Positions 5,784-59,155 of a stretch of DNA of 64,000 nucleotides are shown here, piece after piece. Origin of the DNA: Candidatus Rariloculaceae bacterium (GTDB lineage: Bacteria > Pseudomonadota > Gammaproteobacteria > Steroidobacterales > Rariloculaceae); the NCBI GenBank assembly GCA_965204155.1, contig OZ241971.1, positions 3,072,205 through 3,136,204 of the forward strand. The letters run 5' to 3'. The translations under genes and the position numbers were made by a program. Within the stretch, counting starts at the first letter, position 1. Each line of letters begins with the position of its first letter. The notes beneath the pieces are model-generated. The model ran no database searches, had not been told where the DNA came from, and worked only from the letters and a program-made list of their open reading frames with translations.

Positions 5784-7409
5784 TCAATCGGCGCGGTCGT
5801 CGAGAAGCCTCGCGGCAATCTCGCGGGACTCGCTCAGGGTTGACACGATGCGGTCCCCGGGTACGCGCCGCAGAATGTTGAGCGTATCGAGCGTATCGCC
5901 GACGGAGCCGGAAAGGCCCATGACGATGACTTCGGTTTCGGCCTTTGTTGCCACACCGATGAGTTGCTCTATCACGATGGCGGCGCTGTCATCCAGATGC
6001 GTGGCGCCCGAGAAGTCGAAGATGACCACCTCGTGGTCGCGGATATCGACACTGATGACCGCGACCAGCTTGTGGGAAGAGGCCACCGTGAAGCTGCCCC
6101 GCAGCGCCACCAGCCCGACGCGAGCCGAAAGCGGGTCCACATTGGCCATGCGCGCATCGCCTGCGAAGAACGTCTGGTCCAGCAACGGCACCGAAACCAC
6201 ACTGTCCAGTTCCAGGCCTTCCAATTGTCGCGCATGGGCCATCCCGGCGGCGATCAGGCCAATGGCGACCGCGGTGACCAGGTCTACGAAAACCGTAAGG
6301 CTCAGGGTCATCAGCAGCACGAACAGATGATGGCGCTGGATGCGATGGATACGGCGCAGGAGGCGCCAGTCGATGACGTCCCAGCCGATCTTCATCAGGA
6401 TGCCCGCGAGCGCCGCATGCGGAATCGGCTCGACGAATCTCCCGAGTCCGAGCAGCAATGCAAGCAGGAGGATCGCCCGCAGGATGCCGGATACCTGGGT
6501 CGATCCGCCGGCGCGAATGTTGGTCACTGTTCCCATGGTGGCGCCGGCGCCGGGTAGTCCGCCGAACAGTCCCGCGACCATGTTGCCGAGGCCCTGGCCA
6601 ATCAGTTCGCGATCCGGCTTGTGGCGGGTACCCGTCAGGGAGTCTGCAATCAGAGAGGTGAGCAGGCTGTCCACCGAGCCCAGCAAGGCGAGGATGATCG
6701 CCGGATGGATTGCGCTGACCAGAAAAGCGGCAGACGGTAACTCGAACTGCAATTGCGGCAGTCCCGCCGGGATCTGCCCGATGACCGGCGCGTCGGTCAG
6801 CCACAGCATGCCCAGCAATGTGCCCGCGATCAGGCCAACGATCGGCGCAGGCACCAGCCGGGCCAGCCGCAAGGGCCAGAAGACCCCGATGGCAAGCGTT
6901 GCCAGGGCGATGACCAGAGCGCTTGTATTGATGTCGCCGAGCGCCGCCGGCAGATTCCGGAGGGCTCCCATGGGTCCCTCCGGAGAGGTGGGTGCGCCGA
7001 GGAACGGCAGCACCTGAATCAGCATTATGATGACGCCGATGCCGGACATGAACCCGGATATCACTACATGCGGCGTATACGCGACAAAGCGGCCGACCCT
7101 GAATACGCCCAGCAGCACCTGGAGCAGTCCGCCCATGACCACGATGGTCAGGGCTTCGGTCAGTGTGCTGGCGTGCGTGGTGACGATGACCGCCATGGCA
7201 ACGGTCATCGATGGGGTGGGGCCGGATATCTGGGATTTCGTTCCGCCGAATGCCGAAGCAAAGAAACCCACCGCAATGGCGCCGTACAATCCGGCAGCCG
7301 CGCCGAGGCCGGACGCGATGCCGAAGGCCAGCGCCACCGGCAGCGCCACCACGGCGGAAGTGAGTCCGCCGAAGAGATCGCCCCTGAACGTCTCGATGTC
7401 GTATTTCAC
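5784..7409 (-). CDS. SulP-family anion transporter with C-terminal STAS domain
   Basis: 541 aa. N-terminus MKYDIETFRGDLFGGLTSAVVALPVALAFGIASG is the SulP signature region. About 10-12 TM segments, followed by a soluble C-terminal STAS-like region. Confidence 0.9.
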   Translation of the reverse strand: MKYDIETFRGDLFGGLTSAVVALPVALAFGIASGLGAAAGLYGAIAVGFFASAFGGTKSQISGPTPSMTVAMAVIVTTHASTLTEALTIVVMGGLLQVLLGVFRVGRFVAYTPHVVISGFMSGIGVIIMLIQVLPFLGAPTSPEGPMGALRNLPAALGDINTSALVIALATLAIGVFWPLRLARLVPAPIVGLIAGTLLGMLWLTDAPVIGQIPAGLPQLQFELPSAAFLVSAIHPAIILALLGSVDSLLTSLIADSLTGTRHKPDRELIGQGLGNMVAGLFGGLPGAGATMGTVTNIRAGGSTQVSGILRAILLLALLLGLGRFVEPIPHAALAGILMKIGWDVIDWRLLRRIHRIQRHHLFVLLMTLSLTVFVDLVTAVAIGLIAAGMAHARQLEGLELDSVVSVPLLDQTFFAGDARMANVDPLSARVGLVALRGSFTVASSHKLVAVISVDIRDHEVVIFDFSGATHLDDSAAIVIEQLIGVATKAETEVIVMGLSGSVGDTLDTLNILRRVPGDRIVSTLSESREIAARLLDDRAD

Positions 7410-11353: not shown

Positions 11354-11466
11354 CGATCTTCCCCCTGAATCCCTGCAATCAAGTATCGACTCCAATTCTA
11401 ATGCACGCGCGACGCACAATTGCAGGGTAACTGCCCCTGCAGCGTCTCTGCGATGAGAAGCGTGGG

Positions 11467-23367: not shown

Positions 23368-24627
23368 ATGAAGAGGAACTCACTGGAACGATGTTTCCAG
23401 CGCGTGGTCGTCTCGGTCGCGGTGGTTATGGCAATCCTGCCCGCTGCGCACGCCCCGGCGCAGGATGACGTTGTCGTAGTCGGCGGGTCCGGATGGCACT
23501 GCGGGGAAGATCCCCAGTGTTTCAACCGCCTGCACCCTGATATTCCCATGGCTGCACGAGCTCTCCCCGGCCAGACGGTCCTTCTCAAGACCCGCAATTC
23601 CGCCGACCTGCAACTCGATCCCGACAGTACCTACGTGGACCCTCGCGATGCCGACCCGGTGCGCGGCACGGTGCACCCGCTGGCGGGTCCGGTCTACATC
23701 GAGGGTGCGGAACCGGGAGATGTGCTCGCGGTGACGATCCTCGACATCGACCCCGGGCCGTTCGGCGTCACGCGGATTACGCCCAACGCGTTCATCGGGG
23801 ACCGGATTCCGGGTCCGTTCAGCGTCACGTGGCGATTGAATCGCAGGGAAGCGGTATCCGATGCGTTGCCGGGTGTGCGTATCCCGAACGCGAGTTTCCC
23901 GGGAATTGTGACGGTATTGCCGGGGCCTGCGCAGCATGCCGCGGCTCTGGAGCGAGAGGCAGCGCTGGCCGCGGCAGGCGGCGCCGTGGGCCTGCCTCAG
24001 CCGATACACGCCTCGCCGGCCGAGATCTGCGGACCGCAAGGCAGCCGCCGCGACGATTGCCTGCGGACAGGTCCACCCCGGGAACACGGCGGAAACATGG
24101 ACATCCGCTACCTGGGCGTCGGCGTCACGGTCTATCTGCCCTGCTACGTGGAAGGATGCGGTCTGGGAGTCGGAGACATGCACTTTGCCCAGGGCGACGG
24201 TGAAGTCGCCGGCACGGCTATCGAGATGGACGCCGACGTGACGCTGACGACCGAGCTCATCGAGGACGGACCGGAGCTTCTTCGCGGTCCACACTATGAA
24301 GGTACTGTCCGCTTGATGGACGTGCCCTCAAGGCGCTTCTATGCAACCACCGGGTTACCGCTGAAGGCCGCAGGAGAAATTCCGCCGGACATGGCCTATC
24401 TCGAATCACCCAAAGCAGGAGAGCTCGAGAATCTCTCGAAGGACATCAGCCTTGCGGCCAGAAACGCCCTACTGGAAATGATCGACTACATGGTTGCGAA
24501 TCACGGTCTGACACCCGAGCAGGCCTACGTTGTTGCCAGCGTGGCAGTGGACCTTCGAATCGGCCAGCTGGTCGACGTGCCCAATGTCGGTGTCACTGCC
24601 ATTTTGCCGTTGGATATCTTTGACTAG
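23368..24627 (+). CDS. Secreted acetamidase/formamidase-family amidase (FmdA/AmdA-like)
   Basis: 419 aa with a signal peptide ending AHAPAQ. Family-typical GGNMDIRYLGVGVTVYLPCYVEGCGLGVGDMHFAQGDGEV. Confidence 0.85.
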   Translation: MKRNSLERCFQRVVVSVAVVMAILPAAHAPAQDDVVVVGGSGWHCGEDPQCFNRLHPDIPMAARALPGQTVLLKTRNSADLQLDPDSTYVDPRDADPVRGTVHPLAGPVYIEGAEPGDVLAVTILDIDPGPFGVTRITPNAFIGDRIPGPFSVTWRLNRREAVSDALPGVRIPNASFPGIVTVLPGPAQHAAALEREAALAAAGGAVGLPQPIHASPAEICGPQGSRRDDCLRTGPPREHGGNMDIRYLGVGVTVYLPCYVEGCGLGVGDMHFAQGDGEVAGTAIEMDADVTLTTELIEDGPELLRGPHYEGTVRLMDVPSRRFYATTGLPLKAAGEIPPDMAYLESPKAGELENLSKDISLAARNALLEMIDYMVANHGLTPEQAYVVASVAVDLRIGQLVDVPNVGVTAILPLDIFD

Positions 24628-24701
24628 TGGTTCCACCAACAAGTTTGCCGAGGAGATTTCACCGGGTCTTCGGATGGGTTTCAAGGAACGAAGTATTGAG
24701 A

Positions 24702-26759
24702 ATGGGACATAGGATTCACTTGCTGGTCGCAATGACGCTGTTCCCGGCGCTCGTCGGCGCGCAAGACGACCCGGCCGCAGGGGAGGGGCTGGAGGAGATC
24801 GTCGTGCTGGCCACTCGAATGAGCCGTCCGCTGGACTCGGTCCCCGCTGCGGTGAGTGTGGTGAGCCAGGACGAAATTCAACTGGGCCGCCAGCAACTGG
24901 GTCTTGACGAGGCGCTCACCCGGGTACCCGGGCTGTTCATGCAGAATCGCTACAATTTCGCCCAGGATCTGCGAGTTTCCATCCGCGGCTTCGGTGCCCG
25001 GTCGGCGTTCGGTATCCGCGGTGTCAAGATTCTCGTGGACGGCATTCCCGAGACGCTGCCCGACGGCCAGGGCCAGGTGGACAGCATCGACCTGGGCGCC
25101 GCGCAGCAGATCGAAGTGCTTCGCGGTCCAAGCTCGTCGTATTACGGTAATGCCTCCGGGGGTGTGATCAGCGTGACGTCGGAGCGAGGGCCGGAGACGC
25201 CGTTTGCCAATCTGCGCCTCACTGCAGGTGAGTACGGCGCACGGAAGTTCCAGGTCAAGACGGGCGGGCAGGCGGACCGCGTCAACTACTTCGTCAGCCT
25301 CTCCGACTCCGGGTTTGACGGGTACCGGGAACACAGCGAAACCGAGAATACGCAGTTGAGCGGGCGCCTCGAATTCGATCTTGGCGACCGTGGCACCCTG
25401 CTGGCGCTGGCCAACTATACGGACCAGCCGGTGTCGAACGATCCCGGCGGCATCAACCTCGCCCAGGCGCAGGCCGATCCGCGATCGGCCAGGGACCGCA
25501 ACCTGAGTTTCGTCGGGGGCGAGGCGCTGGAGCAGACTCGCGTCGGCTTCGTTTACTCGCTTCCCATGGGGGAGGGAAGCGAATTGCAGGTCCGCAACTA
25601 CTATGTATCCCGTGACTTTAGCAACCGGTTGCCCTTCTTCGGTGGAGGCTCGGTGGACCTGCAGCGATTCTTTGCAGGCGGCGGCATCAGCTATACCCAC
25701 GAAGGTAGCCTGGGAGACAGGCCCAATCGAGTCGTCGTGGGCCTGGACTACGACGACCAGGACGATCACCGGCGCCGGTTCAACAACAACATGGGCGTTC
25801 TCGGCGCCCTGACCCTGGATCAGGACGAGCACGTCACCAGTACCGGACTGTTCATCCAGGACGAACTCAGTATTGCGGACAATGTTCAACTCTCGTTCGG
25901 TCTGCGTTTCGATGAAGTGGAATTCGACGTCGGCGACCGGTTTCTGGGCAACGGCGACGATTCCGGCGTGCGCAGGCTGGACGATGTCAGCCCCATGATC
26001 GGCCTGACGGCCAACCTGTCGGCGGACATGACGGTATACGGAACGTACTCCACGTCATTCGAGACGCCGACCACGACCGAGTTTGCCAATCCGTCCGGCG
26101 CCGGCGGATTCAACCCCCTGCTGGAGCCTCAGGCGGCCACGAATCTGGAAGTCGGACTGCGGGGCGGTGTGGGCAGCCGCACGCGATACGAACTGGCCGT
26201 CTTCGACATCGACGTGGAAGACGAACTGATTCCCTACGAGATTCCCGGCAGCCCCGGAAGGGATTTCTTTGCCAATGCCGGACGCTCGAGCCGGACGGGC
26301 CTTGAAGCCACGCTGTCGTCCCGGCCCACGGACCGCATCGGCATCACGCTGAGTTATACCTACGCGGACTTCACGTTCGCGGAGTTTCTCGACGACAACG
26401 GCAACGACTATTCCGGCAACCGGATTCCCGGCACGGTCGAGCAACTGCTGTTTGCGGAACTGAGTTACCGTCATCCCGCCGGCTGGTTCGGCGCCCTGGA
26501 CGCGCTCCATGTGGGCGATCAGTTTGCGAACAACGCCAACACCGTCTCGGACGCTGCGTATACGCTCTCGAACCTGCGACTGGGATTCGACGCGAGCCGG
26601 GGCGGCGCTACATTTTCGCCCTTTGTCGGCGTCAACAACCTGTTCGACCAGAGCTACAACTCCAACATCCGGCTGAACGCATTCGGTCGCCGCTTCTATG
26701 AGCCGGGACCGGCGCGAAACGTATACGCCGGCGTTGCGGTGAACTTCGATTTGCGTTGA
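24702..26759 (+). CDS. TonB-dependent receptor (siderophore/small-substrate size class)
   Basis: ORF 24627..26759, trimmed to MGHRIHLLVAMTLFPALVGAQ. TonB box LEEIVVLATRM, plug motif IEVLRGPSSSYYGNASGGVISV, and a C-terminal ...AGVAVNFDLR barrel strand. Confidence 0.9.
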   Translation: MGHRIHLLVAMTLFPALVGAQDDPAAGEGLEEIVVLATRMSRPLDSVPAAVSVVSQDEIQLGRQQLGLDEALTRVPGLFMQNRYNFAQDLRVSIRGFGARSAFGIRGVKILVDGIPETLPDGQGQVDSIDLGAAQQIEVLRGPSSSYYGNASGGVISVTSERGPETPFANLRLTAGEYGARKFQVKTGGQADRVNYFVSLSDSGFDGYREHSETENTQLSGRLEFDLGDRGTLLALANYTDQPVSNDPGGINLAQAQADPRSARDRNLSFVGGEALEQTRVGFVYSLPMGEGSELQVRNYYVSRDFSNRLPFFGGGSVDLQRFFAGGGISYTHEGSLGDRPNRVVVGLDYDDQDDHRRRFNNNMGVLGALTLDQDEHVTSTGLFIQDELSIADNVQLSFGLRFDEVEFDVGDRFLGNGDDSGVRRLDDVSPMIGLTANLSADMTVYGTYSTSFETPTTTEFANPSGAGGFNPLLEPQAATNLEVGLRGGVGSRTRYELAVFDIDVEDELIPYEIPGSPGRDFFANAGRSSRTGLEATLSSRPTDRIGITLSYTYADFTFAEFLDDNGNDYSGNRIPGTVEQLLFAELSYRHPAGWFGALDALHVGDQFANNANTVSDAAYTLSNLRLGFDASRGGATFSPFVGVNNLFDQSYNSNIRLNAFGRRFYEPGPARNVYAGVAVNFDLR

Positions 26760-41300: not shown

Positions 41301-42326
41301 CTAGCCCTCATCGCACTCGTACGGCTCGATTCGAACATCGGGAAGCCACACCCAGGACTTGTCCATGACCACCGGTTCGGAAAAGGTGGCCGGATCGATT
41401 ACGGTGATCTCGTAGGCGAGTCTGCTGGCGTTTTCGCCGGGCGTGAATCTCTCGATAATCTCAACTTCATCGCTGAGGGGAATGCCGTTGGTGGTGAAGT
41501 ACCCATAGTCGATCGCCGTGGTCTCCACCACCAGTGTGTCGCCCTCCCAACGGCCGGTGGAGTGTCCGAGAATCGACGGCTCCGGACTCTCCTCCTGCGA
41601 TTCCATGTAGATCATGCGGCGCAGGTCGTACTCCTCGAGTCTGAGCACGATGGTGTCGCCCTCATCCACGAACTCGATGGGGTAGGGCGCTCCCATGATG
41701 GGGGGCATGCCCTTCAGGCCGCAGTTCAGGAGCGGGTCGTCGACCAGCGGATCGTATGCCTCAAAACTGGTGCGGGCGGCGTCCGTCAACGGGTATTCAC
41801 TGAGCCAGAAGAAGCCCTCGCCGCCGGCAAGCGTTGTGCTCCACACCTTGAAAATACCCAGTTCGGCGCCCGACGTATCTCCAGCCTCGGCGAACCACCG
41901 GTCGTTGGTTCCCCAGAGACGGTCCGACCACCTCAGGTCCGCAGGTTCGGGGCTGAACCGGAAGACGAACTCTTCACCGCTGGGCAACAGCATGTTATTG
42001 ACAAACAGGCCACGGGGCGAGCGCAGTGCGGGCCAGCCCGCGGCCGTGACCCGATCGCCGATCTCGACGAACGGGTCGGCGGCGGCCAGGCGGCGCATGA
42101 TGCTCAGCGAGTGGGTCTCGACTTCCCACTCTTCCTGTTCGCCATTCTCACCGGCCACCGTCATCGTGAATTTGACGTGGGGATTGCGCCAGTGAATCCT
42201 GGTGATTTCACCCTCCACCTCGATCGTCGTGCCGGGGTCGAAGTTTCCTCCCACGCTGTGATGTGCCAATGCCCCGAGCGACATCGCGCCTGCGGCTGTG
42301 AAGCCGGCGATCATTCGAATCCACAT
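41301..42326 (-). CDS. Secreted fused HH-module + barrel-module protein, unknown function
   Basis: ORF 41301..42428, trimmed to the ATG at 42326 (GGAGA 8 nt upstream): MWIRMIAGFTAAGAMSLGALA|HHSVGGNFDPGTTIEVEGEITRIHWRNPHVKFTMTV. C-terminal half: LNCGLKGMPPIMGAPYPIEF...GHSTGRWEGDTLVVETTAI...EPYECDE. Confidence 0.8.
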   Translation of the reverse strand: MWIRMIAGFTAAGAMSLGALAHHSVGGNFDPGTTIEVEGEITRIHWRNPHVKFTMTVAGENGEQEEWEVETHSLSIMRRLAAADPFVEIGDRVTAAGWPALRSPRGLFVNNMLLPSGEEFVFRFSPEPADLRWSDRLWGTNDRWFAEAGDTSGAELGIFKVWSTTLAGGEGFFWLSEYPLTDAARTSFEAYDPLVDDPLLNCGLKGMPPIMGAPYPIEFVDEGDTIVLRLEEYDLRRMIYMESQEESPEPSILGHSTGRWEGDTLVVETTAIDYGYFTTNGIPLSDEVEIIERFTPGENASRLAYEITVIDPATFSEPVVMDKSWVWLPDVRIEPYECDEG

Positions 42327-42486
42327 ACCATTGATCTCCTCTTTGAGCATGTGTTCCCTAGCTTTACAGGCCTTCTTGCCTACCGAACCGTGCAGCCCGC
42401 CCAACGGATTTGCCGTATGTCCGATCACTGGAGTAGGCTAGCATTCTGGCGACCGGAACGTTGCGCTGTTTGTGAGGAATTATAGG

Positions 42487-43173
42487 ATGCTCTCACCACG
42501 AGTAAACCATCTGCGATTGCGGAGCCCGATTTCGGCTGCCGCTGTTGTTGCCCTGGCCTGTGCGTTAATGGCGGGACCAGCAGCTGCCCAGGCCGACTTC
42601 GAAGGCATCTGGAATCCGAGTCACCCACGCATGATGGGTCAGCCGGATCCGAGCACCGTCAGGCTGACGCCCGCCGGTCAGGCCGAATTCGACAGCTTCT
42701 CCCCCGACAAGGACCCGACGCTGCGTTGCCTGATGCCCGGGATTCCGCTGGGGTTGGTGGACCCCTATCCCATCGAGATCGTCCAGCAGGAGCACCAGAT
42801 CCTGATCCTCTACGAGCACTTTCACCAGGTGCGCCGTATCTTCATGGACGGAAGGGAGGCGCCTGACCACTGGCTGCCGTCCTATATCGGTTATTCCACG
42901 GGCGAGTGGGATGGCGACACCCTGGTGATTCGTACCACGCACATGCATCCCGACAACTACATGTGGACCGCAGGGTTCCCGTTTTCCGGCGACGAGAACA
43001 CATACGCCATCGAGCGCTGGTGGCGCGAGGGCGACGTGCTGCAGTTCACCGGCGAGGTGCATGATCCGACCTACTACGAGGAACCCTACGTGGTAAACGG
43101 ACTCTGGAATTACGCTCCCGACGGAGAGATATGGGAATACGAGTGCATTCCCGAGTTCGGCGGAATCGAGTGA
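42487..43173 (+). CDS. Secreted barrel-module protein (stand-alone), unknown function
   Basis: ORF 42472..43173, trimmed to the ATG at 42487. Signal peptide ...ALMAGPAAAQA. Motifs DFEGIW, LRCLMPGIPLGLVDPYPIEI...GYSTGEWDGDTLVIRTTHM...WEYECIP. Confidence 0.8.
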   Translation: MLSPRVNHLRLRSPISAAAVVALACALMAGPAAAQADFEGIWNPSHPRMMGQPDPSTVRLTPAGQAEFDSFSPDKDPTLRCLMPGIPLGLVDPYPIEIVQQEHQILILYEHFHQVRRIFMDGREAPDHWLPSYIGYSTGEWDGDTLVIRTTHMHPDNYMWTAGFPFSGDENTYAIERWWREGDVLQFTGEVHDPTYYEEPYVVNGLWNYAPDGEIWEYECIPEFGGIE

Positions 43174-43183
43174 GGAGGGATTA

Positions 43184-43612
43184 ATGAAACATTTGGCAAC
43201 CCTGGGATTATCCGCATCGCTCGTGCTGCTGGCCGGCCTGCCGGTCGCGGCGCACCATAACGGCGCCACGTATTTCGATACGTCCACGACCATCGAGCAC
43301 AGCGGCGCCACGGTGGTGGAGTACGCGATCGTCAATCCCCACGGACGGCTCCACTACACCTTCACCGACGCCGACGGCAACGAACAGGAGTGGAGCGCGG
43401 AGTTGGCCAGCGCCAACAACCTGCGCCGCAGGGGTTTGGGCGGCGAGATTTTCGAGCCGGGCGACCAACTGGTGTCCGTGTCCGGCAATCCGAGCCGCAG
43501 CGGCGCAAACTTCATGCGCCTGGAGAGTGCCGAGTTTGCCGACGGTACCGTGGCTAACTTTTCCGGCCCCAATCGGGGAATCATTCCGGGGCCGGGGCGC
43601 GAGGCACAGTAA
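43184..43612 (+). CDS. Secreted HH-module protein (stand-alone), unknown function
   Basis: 142 aa with GGAGGG upstream. MKHLATLGLSASLVLLAGLPVAA|HHNGATYFDTSTTIEHSGATVVEYAIVNPHGRLHYTF. The start is 10 nt after the previous stop. Confidence 0.8.
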   Translation: MKHLATLGLSASLVLLAGLPVAAHHNGATYFDTSTTIEHSGATVVEYAIVNPHGRLHYTFTDADGNEQEWSAELASANNLRRRGLGGEIFEPGDQLVSVSGNPSRSGANFMRLESAEFADGTVANFSGPNRGIIPGPGREAQ

Positions 43613-43627
43613 CAAGGGGGTCGGGAG

Positions 43628-44839
43628 ATGAATTTCCGAAACGTATTGCTGGCGGGTCTGGCTGCCGCCGTGTGGCCGGGAGGAATGGCCTGGGCGCAGG
43701 AGGGGCCAGGCGGGGGGTTGACTCCGATTGACGCCCGCTTCGTGGAAGCGCCGGGACTTGGCGTGCAGATTCCCGACATCACCATCGTCGACGACCAGGG
43801 CAATCCTGCCAACATCCGCGAGCTGGCCCGGCGCAAGCCCTATACGGTGCTGACGCTGGGCTGTCTCACGTGACCCCCCTTCCTGCGTAACGTCCCCGGT
43901 CTGGAGACGGTCAAAGTCGATTACGCCCCCAAGGGCGTGCAGTTCTTCTATATCTACAAGCCCCTGGCGCATCCCGAACTCGACAACTACGTCAGCCCTT
44001 TCAGCATCGAGGAGCGCCTGATGCACGTGGCCGAGGCGAAACGGCGCCTGGGCACCAGCGTATCGTGGCTGGCGGACACCATGGACAACGCCTACCACGA
44101 GATGGTGGGCAAGACGCCCAACAGCGAGTTCGTGCTGGACGCCGACGGAAACATCGTCGCGCGCCGGGCGTGGAGCGATCCCGAGGCGCTGCGGGCGGAC
44201 ATGGAGCGCCTGGTGGGTGCCGTCGAGAAGCCCACGGCCGTTGCAGATCTCGATCTTCCCGCCCAACCGCCGATCCCGACGGTGGCCAAGGGCATCGTGG
44301 CCAGGGTACCGAAGCCGGAAGGCGCGCTGCCCATGGAGATCGAACCGCAGACCGGGTCGACGGACATTCCCTTCTACGCCAAGCTGCGCGCCGAGGGCAC
44401 TCCGGAGTTGTTCCGGACTGGTAAGGGCACGATGTACCTCGGATTCCACCTGGACCCGCTGTACCGGGTCCACTGGAACAACGAGACCGATCCGGTGGAA
44501 TTCCGGATCGACGCTCCGGCGGGAGTCTCGGTGGACCCGGCCCATGGCGCCGGCGTGGATCCCGAGGAGCCCGCCGATGCCGACCCGCGGGAGTTTCTCG
44601 TCGAAGTCGACGGGCAGCCCGGCGACACCCTGGGTCTACGCGTTCAGTACTTTGCGTGCGACGATGCGCTGACGTTTTGCATCCCTGTGCGCCAGGACTA
44701 CAGGGTGCATCTCATGCGGGATGAAAACCACGACTGGAGTATCCGCACGGCGCCCGACGGTTCGGTGGACCTGAGGCTACCAGGCGGTGGCACGATGCGC
44801 CGGGCCACAGGCGGTCCTCCGCCTCAGGACGGCGATTAG
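43628..44839 (+). CDS. Candidate periplasmic selenoprotein: deiodinase-like thioredoxin-fold domain (C-L-T-U-P-P-F) + C-terminal DsbD-alpha-like domain. The in-frame TGA at 43871-43873 is read as Sec.
   Basis: Track ORFs 43628..43873 and 43937..44839 are in the same frame. The 63 nt between them are open (PPFLRNVPGLETVKVDYAPKG). The joined sequence reads ...KPYTVLTLGCLT-U-PPFLRNVPG...GVQFFYIYKPLAHPELDNY, matching the deiodinase active-site layout (FGS(C/A)TUPPF ... YI.EAHP). Signal peptide MNFRNVLLAGLAAAVWPGGMAWAQ. GGGAG lies upstream of the ATG. A hairpin follows the TGA. Confidence 0.7.
43885..43926 (+). promoter_or_regulatory. Candidate bacterial SECIS element
   Basis: The outer helix is GCGUAA (43885-90) paired with UUACGC (43921-26). 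The inner hairpin is CGUCCC-CGGUCU-GG(A)GACG (43891-43909). Its apical loop CGGUCU carries GGU about 28-30 nt after the U of UGA, comparable to the E. coli fdhF SECIS loop AGGUCU. Confidence 0.5.
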
Positions 44840-44913
44840 CAAGCGCGGATTCGAGTTTCAGCAAGGTCGGGACTGCCGCGGAAATCCTGCCGGCAAGTCT
44901 ACCGAATGCGCGA

Positions 44914-46680
44914 TTATCGACTGGCCGCGGCCGCAGGAACCGTCAGTGAGCGTAGCCGGGCGGGGGTCTCGCCGCGAACCGAATTGATGAGCGTGAGTTC
45001 ATCCACCCGGGACAAGTCGTCCATGTGAATCGCCCGTTCGCGAATCTCTCCCCGGTCCAGCAGCCACTGGCGGTACGTCCCGCCGAGCAGACCGCACGTC
45101 ACGGGCGGCGTCACGCGCTCCCCCTCGATTGTGGCCACCACGTTGGCGATGCTTGTCTCGGTCACGAAGCCGTCCGTATTCCACAACAGTACGTCGTCAC
45201 AGCCGGCAACCGATCGAAATGCGCGCTCATAGACCCCCCGTCGGGTGGTCTTGTGATACAGAAAGGGGTTGTCCGGATCTATGGGCCGGGGAGCCGGCGC
45301 GATGACCGGGTATGCGGAACTCGGCGGCTTTTCGATGACCTCGTGTTCCAGCACGGGCGGCCCATTTCGGTACTGGAGCAACCGGATTCGGTAACGATGC
45401 CCGCCAAACGTGCGCGCCAGCGAAACCAGTGCCTGAACCGCCACGTCGCGGTCGAAACCGAACCCGAAGTATCGCGCCGAGTCGGCCAGCCTGTTCAGGT
45501 GATAGTCCAGTAGAAAAATGCCCTGGTCACGTGTCCACAACATGGTTTCCAGCAAGGCGAAACCCGGTGCGATGGCAGGAGACTTGAGGATCTTCGACTT
45601 GGTCAGGCACTCGGCGTATTCATCGCCGGGCTCGGAATCGGCCACGATGCCGCTGCCGACACCGTAGAAGGCCGAGCCCGTGCGCTTGTCCACTACGGCA
45701 GTTCGGATGGCGACGTTGAATCGGGCCCGGCGATCCGGCGCTAGGTAGCCGATCGTGCCGGTGTAGACCTCACGCGGAAATCGTTCCAGCGAATGAATTA
45801 GCCGCATGCTTGCGACCTTGGGGGCGCCCGTAACGGAGGCGCTCGGAAACAGCGCACGCAGCACGGCCGACACCGGAGCGTCGGTTTTTGCTTCCACGGT
45901 GGATGTCATCTGCCACACGGTGGGATATCGACTGACGGCAAACAGCTCCGAAACTCGGACCGAGCCCCGTTTCGCGATTCGGCCCAGGTCATTTCGCACC
46001 ATGTCCGTGATCATCACGTTCTCGGCGCGGTTCTTTTTCGACTCATGGAGCCAGGTCCCGAGTTCCTCGTCCTGCGCAAACGTCATCCCGCGTCTCGCCG
46101 TTCCCTTCATGGGCTGACAGCGGACGAGGCCCCGATCCAGCCGGAAGAACAACTCGGGCGAGGCACACAGGATGGCGAAGTCGCTGCCGTTCACGTAGGC
46201 GGCGTACGGCGCTTCGGCAGAAATCCCGGCGAAAAGCGAAAACGGGTCGGAAATGCCGGACGCGACCTGTCTTGTGGTGTAGTTGATCTGGTAGGTATGC
46301 CCCTCACGGATCCGGTCCTGAATGAGCTGAATCTTGCGGAAATAGTCGTGACGGGATTCTGTCATTCGCCACGCAGGTACGGGCCGCAGTGCCGTTCCCG
46401 GCAGCGCCTCCAGGGGCCTGGCTTCCCGGAAGAGCCCGAAGCACATCAGCGGAAGCGTGCCTGCGCGATGCGTCCGGAACGAGGGATCGAAACCTTGTGC
46501 GGCTTCGTAGGTCAGGAACCCTGCCGCAAACAGGCGCTCATGCTCGACCCGGCGTTCGATTTTCTCGAGCGTGGCAAGCACCTGCGAAGGCTGGCGGGTG
46601 GACAGCACATCCACCGGATGGTCGAAGCAAAGCCACCGGCCCGCGGAGGAGTCCCGCAGGACGATCCGGTCAACCCGCAT
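44914..46680 (-). CDS. pabB: Aminodeoxychorismate synthase component I fused to aminodeoxychorismate lyase (PabB-PabC)
   Basis: 588 aa. Chorismate-binding core (GxxxxPKxxxMxxI-like SVTGAPKVASMRLI, YTGTIGY, GSGIVADS), followed by a class-IV aminotransferase-fold C-terminal ~200 aa. Confidence 0.85.
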   Translation of the reverse strand: MRVDRIVLRDSSAGRWLCFDHPVDVLSTRQPSQVLATLEKIERRVEHERLFAAGFLTYEAAQGFDPSFRTHRAGTLPLMCFGLFREARPLEALPGTALRPVPAWRMTESRHDYFRKIQLIQDRIREGHTYQINYTTRQVASGISDPFSLFAGISAEAPYAAYVNGSDFAILCASPELFFRLDRGLVRCQPMKGTARRGMTFAQDEELGTWLHESKKNRAENVMITDMVRNDLGRIAKRGSVRVSELFAVSRYPTVWQMTSTVEAKTDAPVSAVLRALFPSASVTGAPKVASMRLIHSLERFPREVYTGTIGYLAPDRRARFNVAIRTAVVDKRTGSAFYGVGSGIVADSEPGDEYAECLTKSKILKSPAIAPGFALLETMLWTRDQGIFLLDYHLNRLADSARYFGFGFDRDVAVQALVSLARTFGGHRYRIRLLQYRNGPPVLEHEVIEKPPSSAYPVIAPAPRPIDPDNPFLYHKTTRRGVYERAFRSVAGCDDVLLWNTDGFVTETSIANVVATIEGERVTPPVTCGLLGGTYRQWLLDRGEIRERAIHMDDLSRVDELTLINSVRGETPARLRSLTVPAAAASR

Positions 46681-46685
46681 CTCGT

Positions 46686-48083
46686 TTACTCGACTTCTGC
46701 AGCCTGTCGACGATAACGGTTCGACGAAGAAAGCGTGTAGTTGCGCGCCGGGGCATTGAAGGTCCGCTCCCCGATTACCGTGAGCGCATCGGCCATCAGC
46801 AATTTCGGTTCCGGATCTTCCGGCCGCAGCCGAATCACGTGCTGCGCCAATTGCGCGGCGCCCAGCGGGTCGTCGGCCGCCATCGCCTCAAGAGCCTTCT
46901 CCATGAGGACATCGGCCCCGCCCACGAGATCGGCCATGCGCTGCGACTGCCGCAGCGGGCTCTCTCGATGCAGGTTGAGCGGATCGCCGTCGAACCAGCC
47001 CAGGTCCTGGGCGTAGATGTCGCGAACCGTTCCCCAGACGCTGCCGTAGTAGTTGGCAAGGTAGTCCAGTTCGGCCAGGTGCTCCGGCAGCGCCGCGTAT
47101 TCCACCAGCTCGTCCGGCGTCATGTACTGTTTGGCGCCCTCGATCGTGCGGTCGTGGACCCATTGCATGGCATCACGGTAATTGGTCAGCACTTCCACCG
47201 CGTTGCCCAGCATCGGCGTGGTATGGCCTCCCACCACGTGCAGCGGGTCCTCGCCGATCATGCTGTCGATGCTCCGGATCCAGTCGCGAACGGATCGCCT
47301 CGCCGTGCCCCGCAACGGATAGGTATTCGGCCACGACTGGTAGAAGTTGTCGCCGGCAAAGACCACCCGCTGTTCCGGCAACCAGACGTAGAGTTGGTCC
47401 GCCGTCTCGCCCGGCGCCGCCACCAGATCCAGCGTGACACCGGCGATCTCGAGCCGTATCCGGTCTTCGGCGAACGTATGCGTCGGTTCGATCGGCCGGG
47501 CCGGCTGAACCTGGGCTCGCGCACCGTCTCCCATTTGGTTGCCCACCGGGCGTTGCGGCGGGATGGCGATGCCGACACTGATCCGCTGCTCCGGCGGCAG
47601 GTCAAATCCCTGCGTATTGGACGGCCGCGCGCCTCTGGTCAACCCGGCCGCCGCAACCCTCGCGGTCTCCGAGCCGTAATTCGATCGTGCCCAAACCTCG
47701 ATGCCCGAGTCCGGGTCGAAAAACGCCGGCGAACCGTTGACATGGTCACCATGCCCGTGGGTATAGATGAGCGCTCGAATGGGCAGGTCGGTAATCTGCT
47801 CGAATTCGGCACGCACCAGGCGGGCGCCGGCCACCTGCTGCCCGGGGTCGACGATGATGACGCCGTCATCCCCCACGATCATCGTATTGGTCGACACCTG
47901 GTAGCCGATCGCGGTATAGACATCGTCGGCGACCTGGATGATGTCCGGTTCGAACATGTTGTTTCGTTCGAGCAGGCGCAGGGTCGCATCGCTGGGCTGG
48001 GCCAACGCACCCGGGGCGCAGATCAATGCAATCACCGCCGCAGAGAAATTCCGTTTCACGGTTCCACCTTTCAGACTCGCCAT
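46686..48083 (-). CDS. Secreted MBL-fold alkyl/aryl-sulfatase (SdsA1/BDS1-like; no SCP2 tail)
   Basis: 465 aa. IYTHGHGDHVNG (HxHxDH). The C-terminal region YLANYYGSVWGTVRDIYAQDLGWFDGDPLNL...AAQLAQHVIRLRPEDPEPKLLMADAL resembles the alkyl-sulfatase dimerisation domain. An alternative GTG start exists at 48059. Confidence 0.8.
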   Translation of the reverse strand: MASLKGGTVKRNFSAAVIALICAPGALAQPSDATLRLLERNNMFEPDIIQVADDVYTAIGYQVSTNTMIVGDDGVIIVDPGQQVAGARLVRAEFEQITDLPIRALIYTHGHGDHVNGSPAFFDPDSGIEVWARSNYGSETARVAAAGLTRGARPSNTQGFDLPPEQRISVGIAIPPQRPVGNQMGDGARAQVQPARPIEPTHTFAEDRIRLEIAGVTLDLVAAPGETADQLYVWLPEQRVVFAGDNFYQSWPNTYPLRGTARRSVRDWIRSIDSMIGEDPLHVVGGHTTPMLGNAVEVLTNYRDAMQWVHDRTIEGAKQYMTPDELVEYAALPEHLAELDYLANYYGSVWGTVRDIYAQDLGWFDGDPLNLHRESPLRQSQRMADLVGGADVLMEKALEAMAADDPLGAAQLAQHVIRLRPEDPEPKLLMADALTVIGERTFNAPARNYTLSSSNRYRRQAAEVE

Positions 48084-48200: not shown

Positions 48201-49874
48201 ATGAAAGGTCTATCCATTTCCCTTCCGGCGACATTGATTGCGGCTTCATTACTGATTTCCGGGTGCGGATCACCGGCGGGCGATGACGCGGGCACGGCCA
48301 TGCCGGAGGCCTCCGGGCCATCCGTCGAGAGCGTCACGCTGGTGGGCAATCCGAATCCCACCGTGCCGTTGGCTGCCATTCTGAGCGTCGTCACCGACGT
48401 TCCAACACGGCTGACGATCAATCTGGACGATGGCGAGCGAAGCTGGAGCGTCACGCCCAGCGACGAAATGTCCACGGACCACGAGGTTCCCGTGCTCGGT
48501 ATGCGTCCCGACAGGACTCATACCATCACGGCCACACTCGAAGATGAAGGTGGGCTTGCCGCAGAAACGGCAGCCCAGACGTTTACCACGCCGCCGTTGC
48601 CGGAGGCGTTTCCGACGCCCTTGATCACCGCCCGGGACCCGGCACGCATGGAGCCCGGCGTGACGATCTTCAACATCAACGGCCGTTGGGACACGGAAGG
48701 CAATTCCACGCCGGCCAACTTCTCCCCCGCCATCGCCGTGGACGACGCGGGCGAAATCGTCTGGTACTACCTGCCGGGCAACCATCGCGTCCACGATGTA
48801 CGGCGGCTCAACAACGGTAACCTGGTCTACGAGGTTTGGCCCGGCACCGACGGCATGATCGAAATCGACATGCTGGGCAACATCCAGCGCCGCTGGCACT
48901 TCACCGGCACCGCCAAGGACCCGGCGCCCGGCAGCATCCCGGTGGAAACCGACTCCTTCCACCACGACTTTGCCGAACTGCCCAACGGCAATTTCCTGCT
49001 GCTGAGCAGCGAGCATCGGGTGATCGAGGACTGGTACACCAGCGAGACCGATCCCGACGCACCGCGGGCGGACGCCAACGTCATCGGCGACCTGGTAGTG
49101 GAATTCACGCCCGAGGGCGAGGTCGTCAACGAGTGGAGCCTGTTCGACATCCTGGACATCAACCGCATCGGCTACAATTCGCTGCGGGAGGACTTCTGGG
49201 AGAACCATTACGACGGTGTGGTCGAAGGCATCGTCTACGACTGGACCCACGGCAATGCGCTGATCTACGAAGAAGAGGACAACTCCTTCCTGATGTCCGT
49301 GCCCTACCAGGATGCGGTGATCAAGGTCAGCATGGATACCGGCGAACTGGTCTGGATCCTGGGTACCCACGAGAACTGGAACGAACCCTGGAGCGAGAAG
49401 CTGCTCACACCGGTGGGCGATGTGGAGTGGTCCTACAAGCACCACGCCATTACCCATACCGAGCACGGCACGTACCTGCTGTTCGACAACGGCGCCGCGC
49501 GCGCCAGTCCGTACAACGAGAAGATGCCCCTGGCCGACAGTTACAGCCGCGCGGTGGAGTACGCGGTCAACGAGGAGACCATGGAGGTCAGCCAGCCGTG
49601 GGTCTACGGTCCGGAGCATGAGGTCTACTACGGCCGCTACCTGGGCGACGTGGACTGGCACCCTGAGGCGGACACCGTGCTGATCAACGTTGGTGGCGCG
49701 GAAACCAATGCGGAAGGCGTCAACGTCCCGCCCGGCCAGGCCCAGCGATGGGCGCGGCTGATGGAAGTGACGCACACGGATCCCCCGGAAAAGGTGTGGG
49801 AGATGCGCCTTCAGCAGGACGACTCCAACTGGGCCATCTATCGCGCGGATCGCCTGCCGAGCCTGTATCCCTGA
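48201..49874 (+). CDS. Arylsulfotransferase (ASST)-family lipoprotein
   Basis: 557 aa. Lipobox LLISGC. Beta-propeller motifs typical of ASST: HHDFAELPNGNFLLLS, WTHGNALIYEEEDNSFLMSVPYQDAVIKV..TGELVWILG. Confidence 0.8.
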   Translation: MKGLSISLPATLIAASLLISGCGSPAGDDAGTAMPEASGPSVESVTLVGNPNPTVPLAAILSVVTDVPTRLTINLDDGERSWSVTPSDEMSTDHEVPVLGMRPDRTHTITATLEDEGGLAAETAAQTFTTPPLPEAFPTPLITARDPARMEPGVTIFNINGRWDTEGNSTPANFSPAIAVDDAGEIVWYYLPGNHRVHDVRRLNNGNLVYEVWPGTDGMIEIDMLGNIQRRWHFTGTAKDPAPGSIPVETDSFHHDFAELPNGNFLLLSSEHRVIEDWYTSETDPDAPRADANVIGDLVVEFTPEGEVVNEWSLFDILDINRIGYNSLREDFWENHYDGVVEGIVYDWTHGNALIYEEEDNSFLMSVPYQDAVIKVSMDTGELVWILGTHENWNEPWSEKLLTPVGDVEWSYKHHAITHTEHGTYLLFDNGAARASPYNEKMPLADSYSRAVEYAVNEETMEVSQPWVYGPEHEVYYGRYLGDVDWHPEADTVLINVGGAETNAEGVNVPPGQAQRWARLMEVTHTDPPEKVWEMRLQQDDSNWAIYRADRLPSLYP

Positions 49875-50031: not shown

Positions 50032-50478
50032 ATGCATATGGGAGCGGCGAGCACGCAGCTTGGCGGCACCGGCATGGTGATTATCGACACGCTGGCTGCG
50101 GCACGCGAACTTGAGGCGGCCGGAATTGAGCCGAAGCACGCTGAAGCGATCGTTTCGATCCAGCGCCGAACGGTTGGCGAACTGGCGACAAAGACCGATC
50201 TCGGCAACGCCGTCTCCGATCTGGCGACGAAGGCCGATCTGCAAAATTTCGCGACGAAGGACGATCTCGAAAATTTCGCGACGAAGATCGAACTCGACAA
50301 CGCGGTTTCCAAACTGGCGACGAAGGCCGAACTCCGGGAATTCAAGTCGGAGCTTGAATTGAAGATCGAGAAGGCCAAGTTCGGCTTGTCCAGATGGATG
50401 ATGACCGGATGGGTCGCCCAGACGGGCGTGCTCGCGACGCTGTACTGGTACTTCTCCTCCGGCCTGCCTGGCGACTGA
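50032..50478 (+). CDS. DUF1640-like coiled-coil protein with C-terminal TM anchor
   Basis: 148 aa. IDTLAAARELEAAGIEPKHAEAIV, followed by five ATK-x-(D/E)-L repeats (27-nt period) and the hydrophobic tail WMMTGWVAQTGVLATLYWYF. The true start may be the ATG at 50038 or 50074. Confidence 0.7.
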   Translation: MHMGAASTQLGGTGMVIIDTLAAARELEAAGIEPKHAEAIVSIQRRTVGELATKTDLGNAVSDLATKADLQNFATKDDLENFATKIELDNAVSKLATKAELREFKSELELKIEKAKFGLSRWMMTGWVAQTGVLATLYWYFSSGLPGD

Positions 50479-56946: not shown

Positions 56947-57016
56947 CAGAAACAGGGGCGTTCGCCGGCACTCGCCGGAGGTGCCACTGAAAGCAGACAC
57001 GCAGGGAGAAATCGGC

Positions 57017-59155
57017 ATGACCGATGCTGGGAGAATTCCGACAGGTGGATTGGGCGCCGGACGCACGGTGGGTGCGGTCGGCGCGCTTGCGTGCCTTCTG
57101 ACGGTGCAACCGGTTCAGGGGCAGTGGGTGGGTCCCAGCTTCACCCACGATCAGGCCACCAGCGGCCGGGCGGCGTACGAGACCGGGTGCGCATCGTGCC
57201 ATGGCGATATCCTGGATGGTGGAGAACTCGGCCCGCCCCTGCGAGGGCGTCTCTTCCTTCAGCAATGGGGCGGCAAGTCGGTCGCAGGATTGTTCGCCGA
57301 AATCGTCGCAACCAAGCCGAGCGCGGCGCCGGGAACGCTGGGCGACACGGTCTACGCTGATTTGATGGCCTACATTCTGCAGGAAAATGGCGTACGTCCC
57401 AGCGCGGGCGCATTGCCGACGGACGTGCAGGCGCTCAGTTCGCTTCTGGTGCCCAGCTACGGACGGACCGCCAGTGGCGGGCTACCGGGCGGCGTTTCCC
57501 TGCCGCCGCCGCCCGAGCCGAGTCCAAATCCCCTGGAAGACATCACCCCGGTGACCGACGAGATGTTGGCGGACCCCCCCGCGGGGGATTGGCTGACGTG
57601 GCGCCGCACGCAAGACGCCTTCGGTTTCAGCCCGCTGGACGACATCGACAGGAACAACGTCGGCGACCTTCGCGTGGCGTGGAGTTGGTCGCTGCCCCCC
57701 GGATCGGCCGAGGTGGCGCCGCTGGTTCATGACGGCGTCATGTTCGTTCACGGTCACGGCGACATCGTTCAGGCGCTGGATGCGGCCACGGGCGACATGC
57801 TGTGGCAATACTCCCACTGGGCCCGAGGCGGCAGGTCACCGAGTGTGAAACGCAGCATCGCCCTCGGCGGCGACTTGCTGTATCTGCCGACTTCCGACGG
57901 GCGGATCGTAGCCCTGGACGTCAGAACAGGCGATGTCGTCTGGGATCAACAGATCGGCGACGACGAGCGCTACGCCATGACCTCGGGTCCCCTGGTCGCC
58001 CAGGGCAAGGTGATGATCGGCACGACCGGGCGCGCGCCCGGCGGCAATTACGTCGTGGGGCTGGATGCGGCCACGGGCGAGGAGATGTGGCGCTGGTGGA
58101 CGATCGCCCGCCCGGGGGAGCCGGGTGGCGAGTCCTGGAACGGTCTGTTGCTGGAGGAGCGCAACGGCGGATCGATCTGGGTTCCGGGTACCTACGATGC
58201 CGAACTCGGACTGGCCTATTTCGGCGTGGCGCAAACCTACGATACCGGACCCCTGCTCGAACCGCTCAGGGGTCCTGGCGTTACCAGCGATGCCTTGTTT
58301 ACCAACACCACCGCGGCGCTGGACCCGGATACCGGGGAACTGGTCTGGTACTACCAGCACCTCCCCAATGACCAATGGGACCTGGATTGGATTTTCGGCC
58401 GCCAGGTAATGACGATGCCGGTGGACGGCGTGGAAAAGAAGGTGGTCGCTGCGGCGGGCAAGGTGGCCATCTACGATTTTCTCGAGGCGGATACGGGCGC
58501 CTATGTGGACTCGCTGGATCTCGGGTTGCAGGACCTGATCACGGCGATCGACCCTGAGACGGGCGCCAAGACCATCGATCCGGCGATGATGCCCGGCCCG
58601 AACCACGTCGTTACGGTCTGCCCCCATGCGGGTGGCGCCAAGAACTGGATTCCGGGTTCATATGACTCGGCGTCCAGTACGATGTTTCTTCCGCTGACGG
58701 AGTTCTGCATGGATCTCACGCCGGGACCGGAAGGGACGGTCACCAGCCTGTCGTCAGGCGTGAACTGGACCGTCAGACCACGGGCGGACAGCGACGGCAA
58801 CTACGGGCGACTGCAAGCGGTGAACTTCGAGACCGGGGAGGTGCTGTGGACGTATCGGCAGCGCACGCCCTGGATGAGCGGCGTGCTGGCGACTGCCGGC
58901 GGCCTCGTGTTCGGGGGCGACGTGGAGCGCTATTTCACGGCCTTCGATACGGACAGCGGCGAGCAGTTGTGGCAGGTCCGGCTCAGCGATGTGCCCAATA
59001 GCCCGCCCATCAGCTACATGGCCAACGGCAGGCAATACGTGGCGCTGACGGCGGGCCACGGTGGCGGTATCTCGGTGGATCGCACGCCGCTGATTCCGGA
59101 GGTCAAGCTGCCTTCAAGTTCCGGACCGGTGGTGTGGGCGTTCGAATTGCGGTAG
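57017..59155 (+). CDS. PQQ-dependent dehydrogenase-like beta-propeller with N-terminal c-type cytochrome domain (quinohemoprotein)
   Basis: ORF 56981..59155, trimmed to the ATG at 57017 (GGGAGA 7 nt upstream). CASCHG heme motif. DWLTWRRTQDAFGFSPLDDIDRNNVGDLRVAWSW and repeated W-motif blades. Confidence 0.82.
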   Translation: MTDAGRIPTGGLGAGRTVGAVGALACLLTVQPVQGQWVGPSFTHDQATSGRAAYETGCASCHGDILDGGELGPPLRGRLFLQQWGGKSVAGLFAEIVATKPSAAPGTLGDTVYADLMAYILQENGVRPSAGALPTDVQALSSLLVPSYGRTASGGLPGGVSLPPPPEPSPNPLEDITPVTDEMLADPPAGDWLTWRRTQDAFGFSPLDDIDRNNVGDLRVAWSWSLPPGSAEVAPLVHDGVMFVHGHGDIVQALDAATGDMLWQYSHWARGGRSPSVKRSIALGGDLLYLPTSDGRIVALDVRTGDVVWDQQIGDDERYAMTSGPLVAQGKVMIGTTGRAPGGNYVVGLDAATGEEMWRWWTIARPGEPGGESWNGLLLEERNGGSIWVPGTYDAELGLAYFGVAQTYDTGPLLEPLRGPGVTSDALFTNTTAALDPDTGELVWYYQHLPNDQWDLDWIFGRQVMTMPVDGVEKKVVAAAGKVAIYDFLEADTGAYVDSLDLGLQDLITAIDPETGAKTIDPAMMPGPNHVVTVCPHAGGAKNWIPGSYDSASSTMFLPLTEFCMDLTPGPEGTVTSLSSGVNWTVRPRADSDGNYGRLQAVNFETGEVLWTYRQRTPWMSGVLATAGGLVFGGDVERYFTAFDTDSGEQLWQVRLSDVPNSPPISYMANGRQYVALTAGHGGGISVDRTPLIPEVKLPSSSGPVVWAFELR

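Follow-up and report, generated by a model that had tools for sequence, protein, structure and literature searches.

The element described here lies in a stretch of 64,000 nucleotides (nt) from Candidatus Rariloculaceae bacterium (assembly GCA_965204155.1, contig OZ241971.1, positions 3,072,205 to 3,136,204 of the forward strand), which we refer to as the window. A gene on its plus strand is interrupted by an in-frame UGA (43871-43873), and a small RNA hairpin (43891-43909) follows within the coding region. The comparative data strongly suggest that this hairpin is a bacterial selenocysteine insertion sequence (SECIS) that directs SelB-dependent insertion of selenocysteine (Sec) at the UGA; we put the probability of this reading at roughly 90%. 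It is favored because the hairpin, with compensating changes, accompanies the UGA in 116 relatives and is missing where relatives encode cysteine instead, and because variation at third codon positions is minimal at the hairpin and one guanosine of the loop is fixed across Gly, Ser, and Arg codons. A preliminary description of the window had proposed a Sec codon followed by a larger structure resembling that of Escherichia coli fdhF. Its core, a SECIS stem-loop with a G-containing loop just past a Sec-UGA, is borne out, whereas its outer helix and its spacing did not hold (see below).

The In-Frame UGA Stands in for a Conserved Cysteine

The UGA joins two open reading frames (ORFs) that share one frame, 43628-43873 and 43937-44839. 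Translated across it, the gene has 403 codons and reads ...TLGCLT*PPFLRNVPGLETV... around the site. A protein search with the gene product returned 898 relatives, 120 of which were listed. Each of these 120 is about 250-380 amino acids (aa) long and matches just the C-terminal 59-76% or so of the query; they are gene calls that restart downstream of the TGA. A query containing the N-terminal part matched solely fragments of 79-82 aa that terminate at the TGA, or C-terminal fragments. Among the close relatives found (P0001, P0270-P0317), no database protein spans the TGA. Their public annotation divides the gene into an N-terminal piece of 79-82 aa and a "hypothetical protein" that is mostly about 300 aa long; a few of the latter are longer and have C-terminal EF-hand extensions.

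The set of 80 genomic loci that we retrieved covers Gammaproteobacteria (Rariloculaceae, Woeseiaceae, Arenicellaceae), Acidobacteriota, Planctomycetota, Verrucomicrobiota, and other groups. The motif was located in 79 of them (L072 being the one in which it was not), and all 79 carry TGA within G-C-L-T-*-P-P-F, with the frame kept on either side. Altogether, TGA occupies this codon, with conserved protein sequence in frame to either side, in all 116 distinct Sec-form sequences, which represent at least four phyla. The genetic code is not reassigned, since more genes of the window truly end in TGA than in any other stop codon, namely 15 of 30 (29 supported by Pfam, and the host gene).

The identity of the replaced residue came from an exhaustive, profile-free search with the exact C-terminal fragment, which gave 550 cluster representatives. 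Many of these are extended at the N-terminus, and all 24 that were fetched show GCLTCP or a close variant at the aligned position. At the DNA level, TGY is found at the codon in 20 loci, referred to as Cys forms. Because full-length homologues carry G-C-L-T-C-P there, the UGA stands in for the second Cys of a CxxC motif, which agrees with the proposal of the preliminary description that it is a Sec codon.

The Hairpin Is Conserved by Covariation in Sec Forms

The letters of the hairpin are as first described. The arms CGTCCC (43891-43896) and GG(A)GACG (43903-43909) pair and enclose the loop CGGTCT (43897-43902), A43905 is unpaired, and the GGT of the loop (43898-43900) occupies nt 28-30 when the U of UGA is counted as 1. 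The RNAalifold consensus of the 79 loci is exactly this inner hairpin and nothing more.

We then used an alignment (A5) of 116 distinct Sec-form sequences, including 38 added from metagenomes, to which the counts below refer unless stated otherwise. The six pairs of the helix 43891-43896/43903-43909 are formed in 99.0% of the alignment cells. Double compensatory changes are observed at three of the six pairs (50 cells in total), and the covariation score of the helix was reached by none of 500 shuffles. Covariation in homologous genes had been put forward in the preliminary description as a check on the hairpin, and homologues containing TGA do keep it in this way. Registers slid by 1-3 nt pair in just 32-67% of cells.

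The pair 43891-43909 occurs in all four Watson-Crick types (CG 71, UA 25, GC 11, AU 2). Its changes fall on third codon positions, one codon being for Asn/Lys and the other for Thr, and at least 17 changes of state are required on a neighbor-joining tree built from the rest of the protein. The pair 43894-43906 is CG in 100 sequences, UA in 11, and UG in 5; the replacement of C-G by U-A in those 11 sequences takes two synonymous changes, GUC to GUU and GAG to GAA.

The synonymous sites give the same picture. Third-position entropy is 1.0-2.0 bits in the spacer between the UGA and the hairpin (codons +1 to +5), which has no insertions or deletions in alignments A2 and A5 and is constant in length. 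It is lowest, among about 300 codons, at codons +6 to +12 (0.42 bits, compared with a median of 1.51 bits).

Two bases of the hairpin are invariant. G43899, the second G of the GGU to which the preliminary description had drawn attention, is present in 116/116 sequences even though codon +9 is variously GGU, AGU, CGG, AGG, or CGA (Gly, Ser, or Arg). It is followed by U in 100 sequences, by G in 15, and by A in a single one. By analogy with G23/U24 of E. coli, G43899 is presumed to be the SelB contact. A43905 lies opposite C43895 in 87 sequences, where it forms a bulge or a C.A mismatch, and opposite U in the other 29, where it is paired. It is the second base of an invariant Glu codon and is therefore also constrained by the protein.

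Cys Forms Serve as a Negative Control

A metagenome scan seeded with Cys forms gave both Sec and Cys forms, from which we assembled an alignment (A6) of 20 distinct Cys-form DNAs with TGY at the codon. The hairpin columns pair in 31.7% of cells in these sequences, which is the level of shuffles, and RNAalifold predicted no structure for the 20 Cys-form DNAs. In the Cys forms, codons +6 to +12 have a third-position entropy of 1.47 bits, equal to that of the flanks. The same codons have 0.66 bits in the Sec forms, or 0.62 bits on subsampling to 20 sequences. The encoded peptide differs in the same sense; Sec forms retain N-V-(P/S)-x-x-E-T, whereas Cys forms vary there (SFPGVEAV, RIGAFEGL, NIAGLEAV, and others). 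Since the pairing and the trough at synonymous sites are seen in Sec forms alone, the RNA constraint is coupled to the UGA. The comparison is a clean example of an RNA structure constraining a coding sequence, internally controlled by the Sec and Cys forms of one protein.

Evidence against the Assignment

A number of results weigh against a SECIS. The first concern thermodynamics. The preliminary description, in which the structure had been folded by hand, took recovery of the hairpin by minimum-free-energy (MFE) folding as a touchstone. The MFE fold of 43865-43940 (-20.9 kcal/mol, z = 0.06) does not contain the hairpin. That of 43871-43926 (56 nt, z = 0.74) retains the outer helix discussed below and loses the inner hairpin. 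The hairpin is thus not the MFE structure at either 56 or 76 nt, and at 130 and 270 nt its pair probability is 0.04-0.31; over the four folding contexts tried, the probability of the inner helix ranges from 0.04 to 0.57. The full structure of the preliminary description, with both helices, evaluates to -9.9 kcal/mol (MFE -10.7 kcal/mol), and the inner hairpin alone to -6.8 kcal/mol in the register with a bulged A and -7.4 kcal/mol in that with a C.A mismatch. A free energy of -7.5 kcal/mol or lower is expected in the bacterial SECIS model, that is, the bSECISearch model of Zhang and Gladyshev as summarized in PMC13188914. The hairpin of the window falls just short of this value at -7.4 kcal/mol, and reaches -9.9 kcal/mol if the non-conserved outer helix is included. 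Over the family, the median hairpin energy is -7.8 kcal/mol and 70/116 sequences pass the cutoff.

Other points against it come from databases and from the protein. In Rfam, no family matches the region 43000-45000 with the limit set at E <= 10, nor any part of the window at gathering thresholds. No selA, selB, selD, or tRNA-Sec was found in the 64-kb window (Pfam on about 40 ORFs, and ARAGORN), and the flanks of L001-L060, the first 60 loci retrieved, gave no tRNA-Sec with ARAGORN either. We assume that the Sec machinery is encoded in this genome. Finally, both arms of the hairpin fall in codons of conserved residues (Val, Glu, Thr), so part of the conservation of the arms is owed to the protein.

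The folding results have to be read with the composition of the DNA in mind. Recovery in the MFE fold is a poor ground for rejection here, because the region is coding sequence of 63.5% GC (the value for the window). We drew 400 random TGA triplets from the window, and 201 of them have a hairpin downstream that likewise passes loose SECIS-like criteria. In this genome, a SECIS call made from one sequence is essentially unspecific. In GC-rich genomes such prediction is uninformative, with a base rate of about 50%, and a modest comparative set is decisive. A listing of candidate in-frame TGA codons over the whole window gave 245 hits, mostly in GC-rich shadow ORFs, and was dropped.

A scan of the window with the pattern GTCYCCN5GGAGAC returned the hairpin site plus one site with a single mismatch. 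This second site, GTCTCCGATCTGGCGAC at 50212-50228, fits the core pattern of the hairpin but for that mismatch, and the count is within chance expectation. No nearby in-frame TGA meeting the 40-codon flank criterion of the above listing of TGA codons was found upstream of it.

The Outer Helix Is Not Part of the Element

In the preliminary description, the hairpin stood on an outer helix of GCGTAA (43885-43890) and TTACGC (43921-43926). The two hexamers are indeed reverse complements of one another in the window. However, the helix is not conserved. Over 78 sequences its pairs are formed in 59.0% of cells, and four of the six pairs are broken in 36-48 sequences each. Its pair probability is 0.06 or less once at least 10 nt of flank is added. 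The outer helix is a lineage-specific complementarity that lies outside the element.

We considered the possibility that the functional element is nevertheless the full two-tier, fdhF-like structure of about 42 nt, with outer helix and inner hairpin together. The window and its closest relatives have no mismatch among the six outer pairs, the isolated 56-nt fragment gives the outer helix a pair probability of 0.6-0.9, and the whole structure lies within 0.8 kcal/mol of the MFE. In E. coli fdhF, the lower helix raises efficiency modestly (PMC8659212). Besides its low conservation, the outer helix is absent from the RNAalifold prediction, the third codon positions of both of its halves vary freely, and an 11-nt asymmetric internal loop would remain between the two helices. 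Its loss of pair probability with modest flanks arises because 43922-43939 forms a stronger local hairpin. On balance, a two-tier element appears improbable.

Two other helices were tried and rejected. A lower helix UGAC/GUCA (43871-43874 with 43910-43913) pairs in 83% of cells. It has no double changes, overlaps invariant codons, and is omitted by RNAalifold. The local hairpin 43922-43939 pairs in 69% of cells, no better than shuffles. It is a GC-rich hairpin of 7 base pairs (bp), UACGCCC-CCAA-GGGCGUG, which dominates the MFE folds of the region and is not conserved.

Comparison with Known SECIS Elements

The SECIS model for bacteria comprises a loop of 3-9 nt, a stem of 4-16 bp, at least one G in the first two loop positions (with G or U as the usual next base), and a spacing of 16-37 nt, in addition to the free energy given above (PMC13188914). 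The hairpin agrees with four of these five points, namely loop size, stem length, loop G, and spacing. As in the model, the stem-loop lies within coding sequence, directly downstream of a conserved Sec-UGA. It has a loop of 5-6 nt, or 3-4 nt as some homologues fold, on a stem of 6-7 bp with one unpaired or mismatched A. The distance from UGA to loop is 23-24 nt (43874-43896/7). G43899 is loop position 1 or 2 in the registers given by ViennaRNA. In the 6-nt loop drawn in the preliminary description it is position 3, and position 2 is also a G in this sequence. The Rfam SECIS families (SECIS_1 to SECIS_5) belong to the same functional class, though no covariance model matches here.

The likeness to E. 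coli fdhF is partial. That element has a 17-nt upper stem-loop starting 11 nt past the UGA (nt 15-31), with G23-U24 exposed in the apical loop, a bulged U17 on the 5' arm that is essential for SelB binding, and a lower helix of nt 4-14 with nt 32-41 (PMC8659212). The window hairpin shares with it a near-identical GGUCU loop, small and apical, in which a G-U is probably exposed, one unpaired nucleotide in the upper stem, and a site in the coding region just past the UGA. To this extent the term fdhF-like was apt. It does not extend to the spacing, the side of the bulge, or the lower helix. The hairpin here is 19 nt long and begins 17 nt past the UGA (nt 21-39) rather than 11 nt, and the distance of the loop from the UGA, which had been called comparable, is larger (loop G at nt 29; nt 23 in fdhF). 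The 5' arm lacks a bulged U; the unpaired base is A43905 on the 3' arm, which is itself paired in 29/116 sequences. The likely counterpart of G23-U24 is the G-U at 43899-43900 (nt 29-30), though 16/116 sequences have G or A in place of the U. A conserved lower helix pairing the UGA-proximal region is missing. The hairpin would work like the fdhF SECIS, yet is not of the fdhF type.

Proposed Mechanism and Remaining Alternatives

If the hairpin is a SECIS, it would form 17 nt downstream while the ribosome decodes the codons just 5' of the UGA. The apical loop would then display the invariant G43899, mostly with U next to it, and SelB, loaded with GTP and Sec-tRNA(Sec), would bind it through its C-terminal winged-helix domain. 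The tethered ternary complex could reach the A site on arrival of the UGA and outcompete release factor 2, so that Sec would be inserted to give the active site C-L-T-U. We infer the binding of SelB, the identity of the inserted residue, and the competition with release factor 2 from the E. coli and Moorella paradigm. In this scheme the hairpin is a conventional element, and our understanding of Sec insertion is unchanged.

A different explanation of the same conserved hairpin is that it stimulates recoding of the UGA independently of SelB, through near-cognate read-through as tryptophan or cysteine, or that it acts as a pause or roadblock, and is not a SECIS. Stop-codon read-through can be stimulated by downstream structures in other systems. 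UGA followed by C is a weak termination context, and C follows the UGA in all aligned sequences. That no Sec machinery was found in the window, and no tRNA-Sec in the scanned flanks, would also fit. We regard this explanation as very improbable. The UGA sits where a CxxC motif has a redox-active Cys, a replacement that classically marks Sec, and several genomes hold two such genes, each with its own conserved hairpin. Furthermore, a single invariant G, a small apical loop, and a spacing of 23-24 nt are together the hallmark of SelB-dependent elements (PMC13188914).

The last alternative, that the hairpin is a by-product of protein conservation or of chance complementarity in GC-rich DNA and that the UGA is suppressed or the gene split in some other way, could draw on the comparable hairpins downstream of half of the random TGA triplets, on a fold z-score of about 0, and on the conserved Glu and Thr of the 3' arm (the Glu being conserved in Cys forms too), but we give it next to no credence in view of synonymous sites frozen at the hairpin alone and in Sec forms alone, compensatory double changes at three pairs of which some are purely synonymous, a loop G that is invariant across Gly, Ser, and Arg codons, and Cys forms with a variable peptide and no helix there.

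The Gene Product and Its Family

With the UGA read as Sec, the product has an N-terminal segment resembling a signal peptide (assessed by eye) and a thioredoxin-fold domain that contains GCLT-U-PPF; its C-terminal domain is a conserved beta-sandwich. It scores below Pfam thresholds, with 23.3 bits for PF08534 Redoxin (threshold 26.6) and 20.1 bits for PF00837 T4_deiodinase (threshold 27). For the NCBIfam model NF038285 deiodinase_rel the score is 41 bits, where the cutoff is 250. Of the sequence models, deiodinase_rel and T4_deiodinase come closest, at scores far below their cutoffs. The TUPPF motif of the host gene presumably resembles that of animal deiodinases.

The AlphaFold model of a Cys homologue (P0137) has a predicted local distance difference test (pLDDT) score of 92.4. 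In this model, which has a thioredoxin fold, the motif is flanked by a beta-strand and by the N-terminus of helix alpha-1, and the beta-sandwich is C-terminal to that fold. The best fold matches are DipZ-C, ResA/TlpA-like oxidoreductases, and the cores of mouse Dio2/Dio3. The target-normalized template modeling score (TM-score) is 0.70-0.77 for the Dio2/Dio3 cores and 0.8 for ResA/TlpA. Among the matches listed, mouse Dio2/Dio3 have the highest sequence identity to the model (19-22%). The product is most likely a secreted TlpA/ResA/deiodinase-like thiol-disulfide oxidoreductase with an extra C-terminal beta-sandwich.

Bacterial deiodinase-like and TlpA-like selenoproteins are described from Sargasso Sea and Global Ocean Sampling surveys (PMC1088965, PMC13188914), and they have the thioredoxin fold and marine hosts in common with the present family. 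The families covered in reviews have Sec as the first residue of UxxC, whereas here Sec is the second residue of CxxU, and the conserved beta-sandwich of about 170 residues is additional. The family is not mentioned in BSepDB or deep-Sep, and a literature search on selenoproteins in Woeseia gave nothing.

Taken jointly, these features may point to an uncatalogued selenoprotein family with its SECIS in the codons of helix alpha-1 and a distinct geometry of SelB recognition, a combination that we put forward tentatively and hold to be rather unlikely as a whole. As regards the family, a secreted CxxU protein with a thioredoxin/deiodinase-like domain and a conserved beta-sandwich may be widespread and absent from current catalogues; its hosts are marine and sediment Gammaproteobacteria (Rariloculaceae, Woeseiaceae), Acidobacteriota, Planctomycetota, and Verrucomicrobiota. 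With the SECIS in codons of the active-site helix alpha-1, an unusual placement, the RNA would fix N-V-(P/S)-x-x-E-T in Sec forms and leave Cys forms free. As regards recognition, the fixed 17-nt spacer and the unpaired A on the 3' side could mark a SelB geometry unlike that of E. coli.

The chief practical value of the SECIS assignment is in annotation. Once the element is recognized, the two pieces into which the gene is now split at the UGA become one complete redox enzyme whose active site is Cys-x-x-Sec. The split affects a family of hundreds of members in abundant marine-sediment bacteria.

Some members of the family depart from the common layout. P0057, P0059, P0071, P0131, P0183, and others bear C-terminal EF-hand calcium-binding repeats, and P0121 (808 aa) has the whole module of thioredoxin domain and beta-sandwich twice in tandem. 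Two diverged Sec-form paralogues, each with its own TGA and conserved hairpin, are found per genome or metagenome-assembled genome in the cases given in Table 1. L021 has an extra in-frame stop about 27 codons past its TGA, inside the motif F-Y-Y-I-Y-K-P-L-A-H-P-E (FYYI*KPLAHPE). From its position in this motif, the stop may be a sequencing error or the mark of a decaying copy.

Genomic Neighborhood

Coordinates of the features are collected in Table 1.

Table 1. Features of the Sec-form gene, its candidate SECIS, and the surrounding DNA (window numbering; nt numbers count the U of UGA as 1).
Feature	Position	Strand	Remarks
Selenoprotein gene (proposed)	43628-44839	+	403 codons; ATG start, TAG stop; in-frame TGA at codon 82
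In-frame UGA, probably read as Sec	43871-43873	+	aligns with second Cys of CxxC in Cys-form homologues
Spacer, UGA to hairpin base	43874-43890	+	17 nt; length invariant; third codon positions vary freely
5' half of outer helix	43885-43890	+	complementary to 43921-43926 in this lineage only; outside conserved element
Probable SECIS hairpin	43891-43909	+	19 nt; 5' arm CGUCCC(C) 43891-43896/7; loop (C)GGUCU 43897/8-43902; 3' arm GG-A-GACG 43903-43909
Invariant loop guanosine G43899	43899	+	nt 29; presumed SelB contact
Invariant A43905	43905	+	3' arm; bulged, mismatched, or paired
3' half of outer helix	43921-43926	+	not conserved; competes with local hairpin 43922-43939
Alkyl-sulfatase-like metallo-beta-lactamase	46686-48083	-	
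Arylsulfotransferase	48201-49874	+	
SulP sulfate permease	5784-7409	-	
TonB-dependent receptor	8795-11419	-	
TonB-dependent receptor	24627-26759	+	
Pyrroloquinoline quinone (PQQ) dehydrogenase	56981-59155	+	with cytochrome c domain
Paralogue pairs			L001+L032 (OZ242031.1); L005+L044 (OZ250159.1); L041+L057 (OY761158.1); L002+L029; L006+L039; L012+L027

A DUF6152 gene (43184-43612, plus strand) stops 16 nt upstream of the selenoprotein gene. Beyond it lie a second DUF6152-containing ORF and an uncharacterized ORF of 233 aa (41301-42428 on the minus strand and 42472-43173 on the plus strand). Homologues of the DUF6152 genes or of the 233-aa ORF recur within 3 kb of the selenoprotein gene at about 10 gammaproteobacterial loci, in varying orientation, and these neighbors may be functionally associated with it. 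An antisense ORF of 445 aa (43208-44545, minus strand) covers nearly the whole selenoprotein gene and is most likely a shadow ORF typical of GC-rich DNA. The wider neighborhood is rich in sulfur-ester and uptake functions.

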